DNA of 64,000 bases, from IMG/VR virus record IMGVR_UViG_3300009777_000113, positions 519-64,518 of that record; one strand, written 5' to 3'. This DNA comes from a virus. Within the stretch, counting starts at the first letter, position 1. Each line of letters opens with the position of its first letter. Positions 1,206 to 63,738 of the stretch are shown piece after piece. The translations under genes and the position numbers were made by a program. The notes below the pieces were generated by a model. The model had not been told where the DNA came from. It did no database searches and worked only from the letters and a program-made list of their open reading frames with translations.

Positions 1206-2033
1206 TTACATATACGCGGGTTTAAAAAAATCATACTCAGATCGATTTCTAAATGGCTGTGACGTCGCATAGATCATAGTGCTTTCGATAAAGGCATGGC
1301 CAAGTTGATTTTGAATCATGATCAGACTGGCACCACGATTGAGAAGATTGGTGGCTAGAGAGTGCCGAAGCAAATGTGGATACACTCTCCGCCCAATTCT
1401 TGCCCTAAGTGCCAACGTGCGAATCATTTTTCGAACGTCGCCTGGGGCAAGGGGATTGTTTTTTACGATGGTCGAAAATAAAAAATCATTTCTTTGTCTA
1501 GGATATTGCCTAAGATAATCAATCAGTGTTCTCGTGCATTCAGGCGAAATATTAACGATGCGATCCCTTTTGTTTTTACCTCCCAAGATTCTTATATGAT
1601 TAGAACCCAAATCAATATCATCGACTCTCAGACCACAAAGTTCTCTGTTGCGAATTCCAGAATAGGAAAGCAAGCAAATCACCGATTGTTCTCGGATATT
1701 TTTTGTAATTTGAATCAGTCTTGAAACCTCCGATTCCGAGAGGATGTCCTTAACGATTCTTCTTGGTTTGCGAGGCCGACCAATTCTGATTTCAACACCC
1801 TTGAGACTCGCATAATGTTCAATGGCGATACTTGTATTTACGATATGACTATAGCTGTATTGCTTTTCATGCATCCACAGAATGTGTTCATTGATCTGCC
1901 GTTTTCTCGGTGACAACTGCCCGATTCGTCTTAGGACAATCCGAATGCACCGACTGTACCCATCTACTGTTATCTTCGAGAGCCCTCGCTCCACGACGAG
2001 ATATTCCTCAAATTTTCTAATATGGTTTTCCAT
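1206..2033 (-). CDS. int: Tyrosine recombinase/integrase (XerC/D-like)
   Basis: Catalytic R (SGIRNREL), K (GGKNKRDR), HxxR (HLLRHSLAT), LGH and Y (STMIYA); N-terminal core-binding domain. Confidence 0.93.
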   Translation of the reverse strand: MENHIRKFEEYLVVERGLSKITVDGYSRCIRIVLRRIGQLSPRKRQINEHILWMHEKQYSYSHIVNTSIAIEHYASLKGVEIRIGRPRKPRRIVKDILSESEVSRLIQITKNIREQSVICLLSYSGIRNRELCGLRVDDIDLGSNHIRILGGKNKRDRIVNISPECTRTLIDYLRQYPRQRNDFLFSTIVKNNPLAPGDVRKMIRTLALRARIGRRVYPHLLRHSLATNLLNRGASLIMIQNQLGHAFIESTMIYATSQPFRNRSEYDFFKPAYM

Positions 2034-2338: not shown

Positions 2339-2635
2339 TTATTTAATCACAAATTTAGTTTGAAGAACTTTGGCAATAGTCAAGAGAAGCTCCAGAGAAG
2401 GCCGCCCCCTTTGTTGCTCAAGGGACTGAAGAGTCGATGGCTCAATGTTCAGAGATTCGGCCAACTGTTCTTGGGTTAATTGCATGGCCCGCCGCCTCTT
2501 TCTGATTTTTTGGGCGATAGCGGCCACATCTTGTTTAACGGCGTCCCTATATTCTCTCGGCACTCGATCAAGTCTTCTATTTTTACTGGCGTTCTTCATC
2601 CTCCTATTGAATAAGGGGCTGGTTTTGTTTAACAC
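2339..2635 (-). CDS. XRE-family HTH transcriptional regulator
   Basis: IRKRRRAMQLTQEQLAESLNIEPSTLQSLEQQRGRPSLELL is a typical HTH_3 pattern. Confidence 0.85.
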   Translation of the reverse strand: MLNKTSPLFNRRMKNASKNRRLDRVPREYRDAVKQDVAAIAQKIRKRRRAMQLTQEQLAESLNIEPSTLQSLEQQRGRPSLELLLTIAKVLQTKFVIK

Positions 2636-2702: not shown

Positions 2703-3050
2703 ATGAAGCACAGCATCTCAGACTTCTTGGTGGGTGGAGTTATGAAGAACAATCATTTTGAAACATTGAGCAAGTATCTACATGAAAAAAGGGTCGCCAA
2801 GGAGATTACTCAGGGCAGTCTTGCCAGGGTGTTAGGCTATGCCTCCCCGCAGTTCATCTCCAATTGGGAGCGAGGATTGGCGAAGCCGCCCTTAAGCACT
2901 CTCAAGAAAATGATTAAAATTTTGGATCTCGACGTGGATGAACTCTTAACTCTTTTGATGAAAATAGAAGAGAAGCGCCTTCGAGAAATTATCTGTGGAG
3001 AAGCAAAAACCTCAACCCACAAAAAAAGAAGAACGAAAGGCAGCGGCTAG
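2703..3050 (+). CDS. XRE-family HTH transcriptional regulator (probable start ATG 2742)
   Basis: LHEKRVAKEITQGSLARVLGYASPQFISNWERGLAKPPL; divergent from the other XRE gene; GGAG SD before ATG 2742. Confidence 0.88.
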   Translation: MKHSISDFLVGGVMKNNHFETLSKYLHEKRVAKEITQGSLARVLGYASPQFISNWERGLAKPPLSTLKKMIKILDLDVDELLTLLMKIEEKRLREIICGEAKTSTHKKRRTKGSG

Positions 3051-3317: not shown

Positions 3318-3412
3318 TCCTAAAGAGAGGGGCTCAGTTTCACTCGCCACTTTTCCAACCATTGATCGGCAAAATAGTTTTTGGTATGCAACCGAAAATA
3401 CTTTGAATCGTC

Positions 3413-3688
3413 TTAGTTAAAATCTTCCGTCTTAACTGGAGATAAGTTTCCCCAACAAAAGCAAATCGAACCTTTGCCAGAGTCGGTTGGCTTCAAATTT
3501 TGAACTTCAGTTTTCAATTTATTTAGAGAGTCTGATTTGCTTTCGATCTCTCGGAACATCGCCGCCTTCATCAACTCAAAATCGGTATAAACTCGGCTAG
3601 GATCGTTTGAAGGATGGCTCTCAATAATTCCGAACTCAATGCCGTCCTCCGTAAAATCAAATGCCCATTGCATACTGCTAGTTTTCAC
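3413..3688 (-). CDS. Hypothetical phage protein
   Basis: Last gene of the leftward early operon; overlaps its neighbour. Confidence 0.5.
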   Translation of the reverse strand: MKTSSMQWAFDFTEDGIEFGIIESHPSNDPSRVYTDFELMKAAMFREIESKSDSLNKLKTEVQNLKPTDSGKGSICFCWGNLSPVKTEDFN

Positions 3689-3899
3689 GGGAAGTCTCAG
3701 CAGCGGCGGCCTCGGCTTCGCGTTTAGCCTTTGCCTCTCGGTCGAGTTCGCGGTTGTGCTCTTCGTAGCAAGGGAAGCAAACGCTATCGAGAATCGATTC
3801 GGGGCCGCTTAACTCTTCTTCCAACTCAAACTCTTGATCGCAAATGTCGCAAATTTTTTTAACCATATTTGAAGTCTCCTTTCTTGAAGTGACGGACAC
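3678..3899 (-). CDS. Small Zn-finger protein (CxxC...CxxC)
   Basis: CDICD...CFPCY followed by a charged helix; AAGGAG SD before an internal ATG. Confidence 0.55.
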   Translation of the reverse strand: MSVTSRKETSNMVKKICDICDQEFELEEELSGPESILDSVCFPCYEEHNRELDREAKAKREAEAAAAETSREN

Positions 3900-4714
3900 A
3901 TAGCTCCGGTGCGGCGTGATCGCAAGTCGATTTAATACAACGTAGTAAAACCCTATTTGAAAAAAATGCGGCGCGGATTTGAAAGGGGGATGCCACCGGA
4001 TAAAACGAAAATTTTCCCCATTTTCCGTGATAGGGGCGGGGGTGCATCCCTTTGATTTCTCTACAGAAGGCCCACTGAGGCTCGCCTCGTGCGTCTACTC
4101 GCCAACCTCGCGCCCGATAGTCGCCACGATCCGCGCACTTACCTTGCTCCACTGCGGGACTCTTTCATCTCGAAGCTATACGCATACTTAGTCTTAGGCT
4201 TGATGATGTCCGCAAATAGGTAAAAGCGGACGTACTACTTGCGCGACACCTTTGAGGAATCTGTGACGACTCTGTCGTTATGCCCTGAGCTGACCACCGA
4301 GTAGTCGATCTCTATTGGGACTTTTTTCGGGCTGCTCCAGAAAAAGACTCTCCCGGATAGGACGCCAGGTAACCCAACCTAACCCCTGTCCACGCAGCCT
4401 TCAACTCTAACACCCAAGTCTTAGCTACCTTAACCAACTGTAAAGGCTGACCTATTTACCCACTTTAATACGCCAGGCATTTTAGTTTTAATCCCTAACC
4501 ATAGTGTTGGTGTTAGCCCTGTCTTCCCCTATGAGCAGCGGTTACCGAGCGTTTTCTATCCGAACCAATATGGTCTTAACTCTAAACCTATTTAAGATTC
4601 TGGCAGATACCCAGACGTTCGGCCCGTTAGTATGCAGCAGCGCAACAGGAATCGCGTGGACAAGTTGGTGGATACCGGGAACAACTCTTCGCAATGTCAG
4701 GGCCGTGTTTGGCT

Positions 4715-4981
4715 TTATAGCGCCGTCTCTGGAAGCGAGGCGGATCGATCTACCGTTATCGACTTTGAAGCGTGAATTAGGGCGTCTGTGGCGGTTAGAA
4801 GTTGAATATTTGGGTCGGTCGAGAGGCGCTTCAACGCTTCGACTATCTCCTGGACTATGGCCCGTCGCTCCATCGGTAAATAGAAGTGTGTGCCATAGCC
4901 GTCGTTGTGGACGGAGACTCGCTGGCTACAGACTTCGCAGAGGCGCACTTGCATAAGGATCCTTTTAGAGAAGCAGTTCAA
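4715..4981 (-). CDS. Hypothetical protein with CxxC
   Basis: MQVRLCEVCSQ; co-directional with the early operon. Confidence 0.45.
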   Translation of the reverse strand: MNCFSKRILMQVRLCEVCSQRVSVHNDGYGTHFYLPMERRAIVQEIVEALKRLSTDPNIQLLTATDALIHASKSITVDRSASLPETAL

Positions 4982-5070
4982 TTAGACTAAGACTTAAGAA
5001 AACTAAAACCGTAAGACCGATTGATACTAAGACGTAGGCTGTGAGTCTTCCCCATTCAAACGGCGGCATT

Positions 5071-6893: not shown

Positions 6894-7312
6894 TTGCGTT
6901 TCCCCTTTTTTTGAAAGAGCGATTTGATCTCCACCTTTTCTGGGCGCTCTTCTTTTTCCTTCCAGAAGGTGACTTTGCAATGTGGGCATTGAGTGACGAT
7001 GCTGCCTTGGAGTTTGACCCGACTGGTTTTAAGATTCTTTTTCGCCTTCGGATCGGTGATCTTTAAAAGATCCTCTTTTGAAAGTTGGCCTAGCATCTCT
7101 TTCTTGGCCGGACACTTATGAACAACTTGTGTGGCCGTGTTGGGAATTTTGTATTTGATCATCCGAACAACCGCGTGGCTCTCAACGATCAGAACTCGGT
7201 AGGTGACTTCATCGATCATGAACTCATCACCGATCTGCAATTCCCTTTTGAAATTGCGTTTGACCGGGTTTGCTTTCTTTCTGTCGAAGACATCAAAGAG
7301 TGTGTATTCCAT
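6890..7312 (-). CDS. Hypothetical protein with CPHC motif
   Basis: Tight operon packing; QCPHCK. Confidence 0.6.
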   Translation of the reverse strand: MEYTLFDVFDRKKANPVKRNFKRELQIGDEFMIDEVTYRVLIVESHAVVRMIKYKIPNTATQVVHKCPAKKEMLGQLSKEDLLKITDPKAKKNLKTSRVKLQGSIVTQCPHCKVTFWKEKEERPEKVEIKSLFQKKGKRK

Positions 7313-7836
7313 CAGTTCACCTTTGTTTGAACATTGACGAGCTTCATGCGTCTGCCATCAAGGGCCGCGTTGATGATGGTATTCAGCTGACCTGAGAAGG
7401 TGAGCCTATCGAAGAACTCCATCTCGTCTTTGGTAATTTTCTTTTTTACGAAGACCATGCTTCGAATGAGGTGTGAGTGTTTGAAAAGCTCTTTTACCGA
7501 TTTTCTACACTGAGCCACGATGAGTTTTATTTTGTCATCGCCCACGCCTGTGACTCCGGCGTAATCAAGCTCTAGCTTCACATAGTGCGCGGTGAGGTTC
7601 CATGTGAGGTCAGGCATTCCAACTTTATCGTAGGCTTGACCACAGAGGGAGCAGCACTTGTCTTTGTAGAAATTCTTTTTCTTTTCAAACCGCACCGCCT
7701 GGCGAACGATTACCTTTTGTGGGGCAACCATTCGCTCAAGCAAATCTTTGAAGGTGGGTTTCTCGTCGGGGTGAAAGCCAGTGCAGTAAAGGCACCACGG
7801 TATTCCATGTGTTGTTCGTTTGACTTCGATATTCAT
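7312..7836 (-). CDS. Hypothetical Zn-binding protein
   Basis: WCLYC and CCSLCG motifs; operon packing. Confidence 0.6.
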   Translation of the reverse strand: MNIEVKRTTHGIPWCLYCTGFHPDEKPTFKDLLERMVAPQKVIVRQAVRFEKKKNFYKDKCCSLCGQAYDKVGMPDLTWNLTAHYVKLELDYAGVTGVGDDKIKLIVAQCRKSVKELFKHSHLIRSMVFVKKKITKDEMEFFDRLTFSGQLNTIINAALDGRRMKLVNVQTKVN

Positions 7837-15676: not shown

Positions 15677-15892
15677 TCAAATTGGTGTTAATAAAAAAAT
15701 TCCCAGAGCCAAACGATCCGAAGAGTTGGGCATTGGCACCCCACAATCCTGTATGGAGTACTCTTCCAAATCGCTGGCTCTGGGCGGGGATGGGGGATTG
15801 CTTTGTGGGTTAATTAAAGTCTTAATGTTTGTCTTAGTTTTAGTGTTAATTCCAAGACTAAGATTGTTGTTAACAACAAACGGTTTCTTCAT
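15677..15892 (-). CDS. Possible leader ORF (71 aa) spanning the stem-loop
   Basis: SD GAGGGG before ATG 15892; the stop TGA abuts the SD of the next gene; the product is low-complexity, so the call is uncertain. Confidence 0.3.
   Translation of the reverse strand: MKKPFVVNNNLSLGINTKTKTNIKTLINPQSNPPSPPRASDLEEYSIQDCGVPMPNSSDRLALGIFLLTPI
15691..15784 (-). terminator. Long stem-loop followed by U-tract (terminator/attenuator-like leader RNA)
   Basis: Minus strand CCCAGAGCCAGCGATTTGGAAGAGT...ACTCTTCGGATCGTTTGGCTCTGGG-AATTTTTTTATT; ~24-bp bulged stem. Confidence 0.65.
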
Positions 15893-16078
15893 TTCCCCTC
15901 TCACAATCTCCACCCCTTCAAGCCGAGCTTTGTAAATGACATCGAAAATTTATGTCAAATTACTAATTGCATTTTCTTCAAAAAAAGTGAGTTGAAGCTC
16001 CATTTCATGATGGATCTCCAATGCAAATCTCCATTGGTTTAGGTGAGCAATGGTCTTTTACAATGTTGTTTTCCATTG

Positions 16079-16285
16079 CTAAGACCCGCCACTTTTTCCG
16101 TTTAAGAGATCAAGAAGGGTTAAATCCCCATTCACTAAGATCCATGTTCCCTTCGGACTTAGCGTTTGGTTAACCGCTTGTAGGAGGTGATGAAGTTTGA
16201 GGTCCTCATTTAGCGAGAGCCACCGTTCGGGCAGCGCCTCTCGAATCAATGCGAATATTTTCTCGACTTCTTCTCTCTCGCTCAT
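16079..16285 (-). CDS. Hypothetical protein
   Basis: Preceded by SD AAGGA and the palindromic site at 16306. Confidence 0.6.
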   Translation of the reverse strand: MSEREEVEKIFALIREALPERWLSLNEDLKLHHLLQAVNQTLSPKGTWILVNGDLTLLDLLNGKSGGS

Positions 16286-16305
16286 CTCACTTATTCCTTA
16301 TCAAC

Positions 16306-16322
16306 GTGATACATTGTATCAC
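16306..16322 (-). promoter_or_regulatory. Palindromic operator/extended -10 site, copy 1
   Basis: GTGATACATTGTATCAC, 20 nt upstream of ATG 16285. Confidence 0.85.
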
Positions 16323-16508
16323 CTATAAACAAAAAAGTGAAAAGGGTAAAATTGAAAAAGTGAAATTTGAAATGTCGCGCAAGATCCCTACAGAGAAGCG
16401 CACGGCCTGCGAATTTCGCCTCATCTATATATAGAGAAGCGAAATCTTAGCGGGATTCTTAGTCTTAGTGTTTGATTTAAACCTAAAACAAAGATTTTGA
16501 CAGTCTTA

Positions 16509-16525
16509 GTGTTACATTGTATCAC
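16509..16525 (+). promoter_or_regulatory. Palindromic operator, copy 2 (upstream of the tandem-RHH gene)
   Basis: GTGTTACATTGTATCAC; TTGACA at 16497-16502 lies 17 nt before TATCAC; flanked by GTCTTAG/CTAAGAC. Confidence 0.8.
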
Positions 16526-16548
16526 TGTTCTAAGACCTGTATGGAGGA

Positions 16549-17016
16549 TTGAAAATGGCGAAACCAAAAAATGAAGATTGGGAATTGGGTGAGCAGTGGG
16601 AAAGTTTTCGAGTTAAGGAGAGCGATGATCTGATGGCTCTTCTTAGTGATGTTGAGGGAAATCGTGGAGAGTTCATTAGAAACGCTCTCCTCAAATTCTA
16701 TGAAGGAAAGTTGCTCATTGATTGCCCAACTTGTGAGGGCGATGGGCAGATTTACAGTGGCAGCGGTAAAGGTCAGGCCCCCTCTTCAAAAAAGAAAGGG
16801 AAGGACGGCAAGAGTAAAGTGTTCACTTTTAGGTCCGACAGCGGACTCCAAAAGGATCTTGCGAAAGCAAAAGACAAAGGCGAAACCATTAAGATGTCCC
16901 TTGCTGTAGCCCTATCCAAAGAGCACGTCTTAGAGTGCCCCACATGCAGAGGTGTTGGCCGTGTGATTGGCGGGCCAAAAATTAGAAAGGCGGTACTCGC
17001 AAGGTTTTCGGTCTAA
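16549..17016 (+). CDS. Putative transcription factor with tandem [RHH-CxxCxGxG]x2
   Basis: ESFRV..DL..LL....NRGEFIRNAL then CPTCEGDG; VFTFRSD..L.......GETIK..L then CPTCRGVG; SD GGAGG (start probably ATG 16555). Confidence 0.65.
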   Translation: MKMAKPKNEDWELGEQWESFRVKESDDLMALLSDVEGNRGEFIRNALLKFYEGKLLIDCPTCEGDGQIYSGSGKGQAPSSKKKGKDGKSKVFTFRSDSGLQKDLAKAKDKGETIKMSLAVALSKEHVLECPTCRGVGRVIGGPKIRKAVLARFSV

Positions 17017-17020
17017 AACC

Positions 17021-17248
17021 TTAATAATTCTTACGAGCGTGACTTGGGCAAGAACATACAGGCTTCGGTGGGAGTGGGATCTCCTTCATCGGATGGTCCT
17101 TTCCTTTACGACAGAAAGGACAGCGATACATCGAGCTTGTACCTTCAGCTTCATTCTTAACCCAAATTAACCCCTCATTTTCGCAGTATTTGCAGACAGT
17201 TTTTTGTTTAGCTTTCATTTTCATCATCTCAGTGTATGAGGCAAACAT
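17021..17248 (-). CDS. Small Cys-rich Zn-finger protein
   Basis: CKYC...CPFC...CSC; convergent with the tandem-RHH gene. Confidence 0.55.
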   Translation of the reverse strand: MFASYTEMMKMKAKQKTVCKYCENEGLIWVKNEAEGTSSMYRCPFCRKGKDHPMKEIPLPPKPVCSCPSHARKNY

Positions 17249-17624: not shown

Positions 17625-17936
17625 ATGTCAATCCGCAAGCACTTACCGCCTCGTACAAAGGAAGGGTACACGAGCCTGCAGGTCAAAATGGAAACTGCAG
17701 TGGTCGATGAGGTGAAATCATTTATGAAAATCGATGGGATTTCCTGGAACGACCTGCTCACGGCCTGTTTTAGGAAATACCTTGAAGAGTCACGAGTTGT
17801 TCACGGGGACAAAGAAAAAGAAGAAACCGCACGGAACAAGATCAACTCAACACTTCTGGGCATCATCACTATTATCAGTCTTTGTGAAAGTCCAATACTT
17901 CAGGTTGTCTGCGATTTTAGTGACTACCTTTCTTAA
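17625..17936 (+). CDS. RHH (CopG/Arc-like) DNA-binding protein with hydrophobic C-terminus
   Basis: TSLQVKMETAVVDEVKSFMKIDGISWNDLLTACFRKYLEE; SD AAAGGAAA. Confidence 0.65.
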   Translation: MSIRKHLPPRTKEGYTSLQVKMETAVVDEVKSFMKIDGISWNDLLTACFRKYLEESRVVHGDKEKEETARNKINSTLLGIITIISLCESPILQVVCDFSDYLS

Positions 17937-19771: not shown

Positions 19772-19788
19772 GTGATACATTGTATCAC
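19772..19788 (-). promoter_or_regulatory. Palindromic operator/extended -10 site, copy 3
   Basis: GTGATACATTGTATCAC followed on the minus strand by TAAATAAGGAG. Confidence 0.85.
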
Positions 19789-20842: not shown

Positions 20843-20859
20843 GTGTTACATTGTATCAC
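20843..20859 (-). promoter_or_regulatory. Palindromic operator/extended -10 site, copy 4
   Basis: GTGTTACATTGTATCAC; the minus strand continues GATAAAAGGAGATCAAG-ATG. Confidence 0.85.
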
Positions 20860-31947: not shown

Positions 31948-31964
31948 GTGATACATTGTATCAC
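31948..31964 (-). promoter_or_regulatory. Palindromic operator/extended -10 site, copy 5
   Basis: GTGATACATTGTATCAC, 24 nt upstream of ATG 31923. Confidence 0.85.
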
Positions 31965-47200: not shown

Positions 47201-47217
47201 GTGATACATTGTATCAC
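47201..47217 (-). promoter_or_regulatory. Palindromic operator/extended -10 site, copy 6
   Basis: GTGATACATTGTATCAC upstream of the sheath SD GGGAG. Confidence 0.85.
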
Positions 47218-55723: not shown

Positions 55724-55740
55724 GTGTTACAATGTATCAC
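55724..55740 (-). promoter_or_regulatory. Palindromic operator site, copy 7
   Basis: GTGTTACAATGTATCAC upstream of the capsid SD GGGAG. Confidence 0.8.
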
Positions 55741-58657: not shown

Positions 58658-58674
58658 GTGATACATTGTATCAC
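58658..58674 (-). promoter_or_regulatory. Palindromic operator/extended -10 site, copy 8
   Basis: GTGATACATTGTATCAC upstream of the protease gene. Confidence 0.85.
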
Positions 58675-63721: not shown

Positions 63722-63738
63722 GTGATACATTGTATCAC
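63722..63738 (-). promoter_or_regulatory. Palindromic operator/extended -10 site, copy 9
   Basis: GTGATACATTGTATCAC, 16 nt upstream of ATG 63705. Confidence 0.85.

Follow-up and report, generated by a model that had tools for sequence, protein, structure and literature searches.

Ordinary ribbon-helix-helix (RHH) proteins build their DNA-reading ribbon as dimers only. In AvtR (gp29), a regulator of ~12 kDa from Acidianus filamentous virus 6, one chain carries two RHH motifs in tandem and contacts DNA in monomeric form. The viral genome contains eight sites for AvtR, which also represses the gene that encodes it; the gene next to it codes for another RHH protein (PMC5569661). TraY of the F plasmid is a monomer that holds a whole RHH dimer fold, and three TraY are present in the relaxosome; its strands read the major groove and its N-terminal extension reaches the minor groove (bioRxiv 10.1101/2024.12.19.629322). 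Here we describe P0001, a protein of 153 amino acids (aa) which very probably adopts a tandem RHH fold and which may repress a whole set of phage promoters. Its gene lies in a stretch of 64,000 nucleotides (the window) of the record IMGVR_UViG_3300009777_000113. The window represents most of a 67.5-kb IMG/VR provirus record, and its source is a temperate phage of Bdellovibrio-like bacteria; close homologues of P0001 are labelled Bdellovibrionales or Oligoflexia metagenome-assembled genomes in two sources. AvtR is the closest functional parallel of P0001, and a striking one because the 103-aa open reading frame (ORF) downstream of the P0001 gene also matches the RHH_1 family.

The layout proposed in the initial annotation, namely an RHH-like unit, the knuckle CPTCEGDG, a basic linker, a second RHH-like unit and the knuckle CPTCRGVG, is borne out by the sequence, by structural models and by an internal repeat: the two halves of P0001 are homologous (BLASTP of residues 8-75 against 80-148, E=2e-7). 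Unit 1 comprises a strand (15-21) and two helices (25-31 and 37-48), unit 2 a strand (87-93) and helices 97-104 and 108-121, and a short strand precedes each knuckle. The N-terminus is acidic, and the basic helix at the C-terminus is a possible oligomerisation or DNA-contact element. P0001 contains exactly four Cys, all invariant in the tandem family. The ORF annotated at 16549-17016 (plus strand) exists, but its TTG at 16549 is an improbable start. The ATG at 16555 is the most likely one, because GGAGG lies 6 nt upstream and because the N-termini of the homologues all read MAKPKNEDW or MPKPKNEDW.

The tandem form is rare. Only 14 representatives were retrieved at E<=1e-3 by an exhaustive search among 1.84 billion; 13 close tandem clusters share 70-93% identity with P0001, and a profile search brought the tandem form to ~20 clusters. 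With a unit profile, ~30 clusters of single-unit relatives were recovered, proteins of 73-107 aa with one strand-helix-helix and one CPTCxGxG, which match one half of P0001. Both halves and the single-unit proteins align gap-free over ~50 residues, with the consensus xFRxD..L..LL....NKSEFI..AL......h.CPTCxGxG. No tblastn match to P0001 was found among 50,697 GenBank phage records, and a related-locus search in IMG/VR gave no relative of the P0001 locus. The initial annotation had left room for membership in an already characterised family; Pfam, NCBIfam and PHROGs give none that describes the body of P0001, their matches being at knuckle level only. The same three collections returned no match to helix-turn-helix (HTH) or Peptidase_S24 families, so that P0001 is unlike prophage repressors of the Lambda CI or LexA type. 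In one source a homologue is labelled ‘DnaJ-class molecular chaperone’.

Several lines of evidence point to the RHH fold. The strand-helix-helix pattern that the initial annotation expected of a structural model, in units of ~40 residues with a turn ahead of the second helix, was seen twice, by DSSP, in both AlphaFold runs, one made with 13 close homologues (predicted local distance difference test, pLDDT, 47) and the other with an alignment of 51 sequences. Moreover, when the unit profile was compared by hhalign with ten genuine RHH_1 segments taken from genomes of the same phylum, it matched with P=6.3e-5 (probability 64%) over 36 columns, which represent the whole strand-helix-helix, and the unit consensus lines up with these segments. 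In an exhaustive structural comparison of the P0001 model with 48,161 PDB chains, single-chain RHH proteins lead: 9f0x_E (Z 7.0 over 87 residues) and a permuted single-chain Arc (1u9p; Z 6.6, root-mean-square deviation 2.5 Å, 74 residues), then AvtR (Z 4.8), followed by VirC2, DndE, omega, TacA1, ParD2 and RelB. The number of chains in 9f0x and their lengths suggest that chain E is F-plasmid TraY. The best fold matches cover residues 11-126 of what is a low-confidence model. A profile match of the unit to the RHH protein SvtR (2kel) in the PDB is weak (E=0.18), and the ESM Atlas neighbours, by features and by shape, belong to CopG, RHH_1, NikA-like and MobC clusters. The presence of two RHH-like units in one chain thus agrees with secondary structure, hhalign and fold matches. 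Their pairing within the chain into a pseudo-dimer, which the initial annotation had also put forward, would follow the example of the single-chain RHH proteins that head the fold matches.

The knuckles themselves are the part of P0001 recognised by family databases. TMEM106_N (PF21002) matches residues 34-69 above its cut-off (29.2 vs 24.5 bits); DnaJ_CXXCXGXG (PF00684; 20.1 vs 32.7), Anti-TRAP (PF15777; 19.7 vs 32), NF058604 (17.5 vs 65 bits) and RtpA remain below theirs. Among PDB sequences, the unit profile has its best match in residues 54-92 of TMEM106B (9gi8, E=1.3e-4), with VTCPTCxGxG as the aligned segment. The TMEM106B motif, VTCPTCQGTG, forms a zinc-bridged homodimer with one zinc and two Cys per chain, on the basis of nuclear magnetic resonance, size-exclusion chromatography with multi-angle light scattering, treatment with the chelator EDTA, zinc titration and a C61S/C64S mutant (PMC12894719). 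In the first AlphaFold run a beta-hairpin surrounds each knuckle, resembling what is seen in either half of a zinc ribbon. Given these hairpins and the TMEM106B precedent, we propose a split zinc ribbon, formed between the two units in the tandem protein or between two chains in its single-unit relatives. By this analogy P0001 probably possesses a zinc site. Of the idea that two DnaJ-type knuckles share one zinc, the two knuckles stand and TMEM106B offers a precedent for sharing across two chains; the clamp within a single chain would be an extrapolation from it.

The DNA partner proposed for P0001 is a 17-bp palindrome of consensus GTG(A/T)TAC-AWT-GTA(A/T)CAC. With up to three mismatches allowed, it occurs nine times in the window against 0.08 expected, and ten times in the whole record, the tenth copy being located beyond the window. 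Eight of the nine copies are found just upstream of ribosome-binding sites of minus-strand operons, 8-30 nt ahead of the operon start, and most copies read on the minus strand as TG-n-TACAAT, an extended -10. At copy 1 a consensus scan called a minus-strand promoter, TTCACT-17-TACAAT with TG. The promoter initially ascribed to the P0001 gene, TTGACA-17-TATCAC, is indeed present and overlaps copy 2, the right arm of which is TATCAC; TTGAC and the palindrome are conserved upstream of the gene in relatives. Its -10 is weak, however, and was left uncalled by the scan because it does not have the conserved final T. Two further palindromes, TTACTAC..GTATTAA and TTAATAC..GTAGTAA (2308-2324 and 3932-3948), carry the TAC-N3-GTA core with A/T-rich flanks; located in the lysogeny-side region, they could represent weak sites or another class of operator.

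The association of this palindrome with the tandem gene extends beyond the phage. A 76%-identical orphan copy of P0001 (P0004) is carried by G001, a genome of the Oligoflexia, where it lies in an island that is not a phage (L005/L006/L007; contig C3:1-14186). The island also holds two integrases, part of a relaxase, a PIN gene, an APH-like gene and an NTase/HEPN pair. The module there consists of a decayed 68-aa ORF, two palindromes and the intact tandem gene. The palindromes match at 17/17 and 16/17 positions, T variant included, while the central part of the intergenic region cannot be aligned. They are the only two copies in this 3-Mb genome, both at P0004. No operon follows them, and the orphan module may be an immunity gene retained from a lost prophage. 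G001 offers no good alternative binder of the palindrome, because the other phage candidates are absent, distant or partly unalignable there: no homologue of the 103-aa ORF or of P0105, a second double-knuckle protein of the phage described below, is detectable, its XRE-type HTH proteins are at most 39% identical to those of the phage and located elsewhere, and the C-terminal half of its 68-aa ORF homologue cannot be aligned. In 400 other genomes of the phylum there is one match to the 17-mer (G242; free centre, chance level), against 6 for the reversed control.

A scan of IMG/VR with the 17-mer gave 39 stretches, about chance by our estimate, apart from two, G402 and L046. G402 is a fragment of a related structural module with four 17-mer copies; it is uninformative on co-occurrence because the regulatory region is absent from it. 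L046 (IMGVR_UViG_3300012956_001547, 24% GC) is unrelated and has the identical 17-mer twice (7228-7244 and 7541-7557), both times within an intergenic repeat of ~70 nt and with A-runs and T-runs on either side, in the manner of a bidirectional terminator hairpin; we take this for a coincidental reuse of the sequence.

Operator and protein also appear to vary together. Phages that are distant but syntenic retain the TAC-N3-GTA core, with flanks that differ from one protein clade to the next: the flank is GTG(A/T)TAC in relatives at least 70% identical to P0001, G(G/T)CATAC with P0015 and P0027 (74% identical to each other) and GTACTAC with P0018. From this co-occurrence and co-variation, P0001 remains the best candidate for the palindrome binder, as had been suspected from the start. 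Overall, we consider it about an even chance that P0001 binds the palindrome and represses from it.

We propose the following mechanism. The two RHH units of one chain would pair into a two-stranded DNA-reading ribbon, and the knuckle hairpins of both units would jointly hold one zinc through the four Cys, a zinc ribbon split between units that staples the pseudo-dimer on the face away from DNA. Single-unit relatives would form the same zinc site between two chains. On the 17-bp palindrome, two P0001 monomers could bind, each to its own 7-bp arm, the centres of the arms being separated by 10 bp; alternatively, a single monomer could occupy the invariant TACAWTGTA core. Since the extended -10 of the minus-strand operons lies within the palindrome, bound P0001 would block RNA polymerase, and would silence about ten replication, lysis and structural promoters together with that of P0001 itself. 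P0001 would then be an immunity (lysogeny-maintenance) repressor under negative autoregulation. That the four-Cys zinc site is also the induction switch, oxidants or zinc starvation releasing the metal so that the pseudo-dimer collapses and the ten promoters fire together, is pure conjecture and improbable; were it true, the prophage would sense redox or metal stress directly via its repressor, without RecA/LexA or an antirepressor, and the single-unit relatives would be zinc-dependent dimers working alike.

A number of points weigh against this proposal. As to the fold, AlphaFold confidence is low (mean pLDDT 51, predicted template modelling score 0.40, knuckle regions below 50), Pfam RHH_1 gives no hit for P0001 and reaches only E ~0.13, below cut-off, in two relatives, and a Z of ~7 falls within the range of common arrangements. 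Foldseek, one of the checks named in the initial annotation, found nothing in the PDB at E<=0.001 (best E 0.8). As to the operator, its co-variation is statistically weak, with about five clades in which all phage genes co-diverge, and the retention of the palindromes in G001 could partly reflect linkage, both being within 300 bp of the gene. The XRE HTH pair by the integrase could be the real lysogeny switch, and a perfect 17-bp palindrome suits an HTH dimer equally. Finally, P0001, if it is an asymmetric pseudo-dimer, might bind in preference the GTCTTAG repeats that crowd its own promoter, these being asymmetric too.

The last point leads to an alternative which we hold to be rather unlikely. 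P0001 would have the fold and zinc site proposed and would act as a local autoregulator or switch component on the GTCTTAG/CTAAGAC repeats clustered at its promoter and in a few further early regions, the palindrome being read by another phage protein, that is the 103-aa ORF, an XRE HTH protein or the 68-aa ORF. The repeats are clustered (10 of the 14 window copies in 3410-5030 and 15831-16530), arrays of them precede the tandem gene in every relative including those ~30% identical, and monomeric pseudo-dimers, TraY among them, bind asymmetric sites that are arranged in trains of both direct and inverted orientation. XRE HTH dimers, for their part, typically read 14-18-bp palindromes, and the 103-aa ORF has its own match to RHH_1 (hhalign P=3e-4, 40 columns). 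Yet GTCTTAG stays unchanged where the tandem protein falls to 30-40% identity with differing strand residues, whereas the palindrome flanks do change. Moreover, the palindromes have been kept in G001, which has neither the 103-aa ORF nor close homologues of the HTH proteins, and the overall count of the 7-mer is only about twice chance (we estimate ~8 for 128 kb, both strands).

It is quite improbable that the palindromes need no phage binder at all, being self-sufficient extended -10 promoters or RNA hairpins formed in read-through transcripts, and that P0001 targets unrelated DNA. The minus-strand TG-n-TACAAT of most copies and the promoter called at copy 1 agree with such an autonomous role, but promoter function covers 9 of the 17 conserved positions and the mirror-image arm is equally conserved. 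A hairpin with a 7-bp stem and a 3-nt loop is possible, and the unrelated AT-rich contig has the identical 17-mer in a hairpin followed by a T-run; however, no U-tract follows the palindrome copies of the window, and transcripts from the internal -10 would be without the left arm. The palindromes are also kept in the G001 island though no operon follows.

Highly improbable, in our view, is that P0001 is not a DNA binder but a zinc-knuckle protein like DnaJ or anti-TRAP whose partner is another protein and whose role could be that of an antirepressor or of a chaperone-like factor. Its sole database matches are indeed to zinc-knuckle families, with TMEM106_N above and DnaJ_CXXCXGXG, Anti-TRAP and RtpA below cut-off, and the chaperone name given to one homologue goes in the same direction. 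These matches, however, cover only the knuckle and the preceding helix, while for the remainder of each unit the profile, the fold and the language-model features all match RHH, and P0001 has a basic linker and tails, and the genomic position of a regulator.

The idea that the palindrome is a host SOS (LexA) box, the prophage being held by host LexA and the tandem gene just one SOS-controlled gene, was largely rejected by searches of the genomes of the phylum and of the region upstream of lexA in G001, and we give it next to no credence: the TTAC-N3-GTAA motif of Bdellovibrio bacteriovorus LexA (PMC8565304) is exact in copies with T/A at positions 4 and 14 and in all copies of the relative L008, and phage GIL01 is a precedent for LexA-held lysogeny, but most window copies read ATAC...GTAT and not TTAC...GTAA, only 2 among the 401 genomes searched in the phylum contain the 17-mer with free centre (G001, with two copies at its tandem gene, and G242, with one; the reversed control occurs 6 times), no copy lies upstream of lexA in G001, and the flanks vary between phages from similar hosts.

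The P0001 gene, plus-strand, follows a long minus-strand replication and recombination block (PDDEXK, 5'-3' exonuclease, DnaB-like, RepB primase, YqaJ, Sak4-like AAA_24) and precedes an M15 endolysin gene and large minus-strand structural operons (Table 1). A common layout is found in all the phage relatives examined, with replication genes and the 68-codon ORF on one strand and the tandem gene on the opposite one, in the order 68-codon ORF, palindrome 1, ~200-300 bp, palindrome 2, tandem gene; downstream come a small Zn-ribbon ORF, a 74-104-codon ORF and the endolysin. The 68-codon ORF is a conserved partner of the module, 48-79% identical in phages. Across distant syntenic phages the tandem protein is 30-44% identical and its neighbours ~50%, which indicates that it diverges faster. 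Immunity repressors often diverge faster than neighbouring genes. A single-unit relative, P0034, occupies the same genomic position in a different phage, its plus-strand gene having replication genes on one side and lysis genes on the other, and is preceded by an inverted repeat of its own, GTTATACT-N7-AGTATAAC (L033:5920-5985).

Table 1. Features of the P0001 locus and of its phage setting, in window positions
Feature	Position	Strand	Basis or remark
P0001 coding sequence, 153 aa	16555-17016, stop included	+	ATG start; 13 homologues
Shine-Dalgarno GGAGG	16544-16548	+	6 nt ahead of ATG at 16555; aligned GGAG in relatives
RHH-like unit 1, residues 15-49	16597-16701	+	DSSP of both AlphaFold models, unit alignment, hhalign vs RHH_1
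Knuckle 1 CPTCEGDG, residues 57-64	16723-16746	+	C57, P58, C60, G62 invariant
Lys-rich linker, residues 69-88	16759-16818	+	pLDDT <50; length and sequence vary among relatives
RHH-like unit 2, residues 87-121	16813-16917	+	Same bases as unit 1; single-unit relatives align here
Knuckle 2 CPTCRGVG, residues 128-135	16936-16959	+	C128, P129, C131, G133 invariant across 51 sequences
C-terminal basic helix, residues 141-151	16975-17007	+	Helix in both models; GGPK.RK..LA conserved
Putative P0001 promoter TTGACA-17-TATCAC	16497-16525	+	TTGACA 16497-16502, TATCAC 16520-25
(G)TCTTAG / CTAAGA(C) repeat cluster, second candidate operator type	16445-16536		At 16445, 16457, 16463, 16504, 16530
Palindrome copy 1	16306-16322		Minus-strand extended -10 before 68-codon ORF and replication operon
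Palindrome copy 2, GTGTTACATTGTATCAC	16509-16525		In the P0001 gene's own promoter
Palindrome copy 3	19772-19788		Window scan
Palindrome copy 4	20843-20859		Window scan
Palindrome copy 5	31948-31964		Window scan
Palindrome copy 6	47201-47217		Window scan
Palindrome copy 7	55724-55740		Window scan
Palindrome copy 8	58658-58674		Window scan
Palindrome copy 9	63722-63738		Window scan
Integrase	1206-2033	-	Near left end of window
XRE-type HTH gene 1 of divergent pair	2339-2635	-	Adjoins integrase
XRE-type HTH gene 2 of divergent pair	2703-3050	+	Adjoins integrase
68-codon ORF	16079-16285	-	Divergent from P0001 gene, first gene past palindrome 1, no recognisable fold
75-aa CxxC...CxxC zinc-ribbon ORF	17021-17248	-	Convergent with P0001 gene; 39-69% identity in phage relatives
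103-aa ORF, second RHH-like gene	17625-17936	+	Adjoins P0001 gene
P0105, 109 aa	63790-64000 and beyond (L018:312-638)	-	CPKCNGKG and CPRCKGAR motifs

Other genes of the phage are of interest for its regulation. The N-terminal 57 residues of the 103-aa ORF are 50-59% identical across distant relatives; its C-terminal part is hydrophobic in some of them and absent in others. Judged by its profile match, this ORF is a second candidate DNA binder beside P0001, comparable with the gp29/gp30 pair of Acidianus filamentous virus 6. P0105, encoded between a ParB-like N6 methylase gene and palindrome 9, ahead of the terminase genes, is probably a diverged and compacted paralogue of P0001: both its Cys motifs flank one clear strand-helix-helix, the first unit is shortened, and hhalign aligns it only weakly to the unit profile (probability 63%). 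A search of the phage's own record with the unit profile left P0105 undetected, direct comparison alone revealing it. Its four Cys are all kept in a 43%-identical homologue from the related fragment G402. The XRE HTH pair has a classical cI/cro-like layout, and its spacer carries a small palindrome, ACTACGAGTAGT (2644-2655). More clusters of GTCTTAG/CTAAGAC (TAAGAC), in both orientations, are present in early or regulatory intergenic regions (15819-15858, 4975-5035 and 3410-3434).

If the proposal is confirmed, P0001 would represent a new RHH domain combination, with a zinc ribbon split between two units or two chains, and temperate phages of Bdellovibrionota, a group for which hardly any work on phage regulation exists, would have a master repressor of a new type. 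With a single protein of 153 aa, a single site of 17 bp and four Cys, the system is compact. The differing operator flanks of related phages constitute a natural series in which to follow the divergence of RHH specificity and of phage immunity. A zinc- or redox-dependent repressor, if true, would provide a direct mechanistic link from environmental stress to prophage induction.

How P0001 stands among known systems can be seen first with its RHH relatives. AvtR (4hv0) is archaeal, is without Cys knuckles or zinc and shows no detectable sequence similarity with P0001, and its sites are imperfect inverted repeats of different sequence. TraY (9f0x chains E-G, by our assignment), a single-chain RHH protein as P0001 is predicted to be, is the best structural match (Z 7.0). 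Unlike the role proposed for P0001, it is a conjugation accessory protein without zinc knuckles, which acts on trains of direct and inverted asymmetric sites at oriT. Arc and Mnt are the RHH repressors of a phage, P22, with symmetric operators of 17-21 bp that overlap promoters and accommodate two (pseudo)dimers each; the engineered single-chain Arc (1u9p) is our second-best fold match. The natural proteins, however, are separate chains that dimerise and tetramerise, have no zinc and control the immunity I region and not a whole lytic programme. In Sulfolobus virus SSV1, lysogeny is maintained by the RHH protein F55, which acts at repeats of several early promoters and at its own promoter (PMC5569661), but F55 is an archaeal homodimer with one RHH per chain, tandem repeat sites and no zinc motif.

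With regard to the knuckles, TMEM106B shares with P0001 a near-identical (V/I)xCPTCxGxG, the likeness being confined to the knuckle and the residues before it. It is a eukaryotic lysosomal membrane protein with the motif in a disordered tail, no RHH domain and no DNA binding, and the layout of TMEM106_N, a tail with a transmembrane helix and a lumenal domain after it, is absent in P0001, which has 153 aa, two copies of the motif and no further Pfam domain. In the Cys-rich domain of DnaJ and in anti-TRAP, each zinc centre is built from two CxxCxGxG motifs. P0001 shares such paired motifs with them (CPTCEGDG and CPTCRGVG); DnaJ, however, has four motifs in a contiguous domain of 65 residues, whereas the two of P0001 are ~70 residues apart with a predicted DNA-binding unit between them. 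NikR is an RHH regulator whose activity depends on bound metal, nickel being held via His and Cys in a separate C-terminal ACT-like tetramerisation domain; its metal site is not a knuckle and its RHH is not single-chain.

The initial annotation had presented the whole as a candidate new architecture. The single-chain tandem RHH is already known from F-plasmid TraY, AvtR and VirC2, but a literature search on RHH, zinc and CXXC returned no description of its combination with zinc knuckles. As none of AvtR, TraY, Arc, Mnt and F55 carries zinc knuckles and the literature gave no match, the novelty of P0001 lies in this combination, and in its possible role as a regulon-wide repressor.

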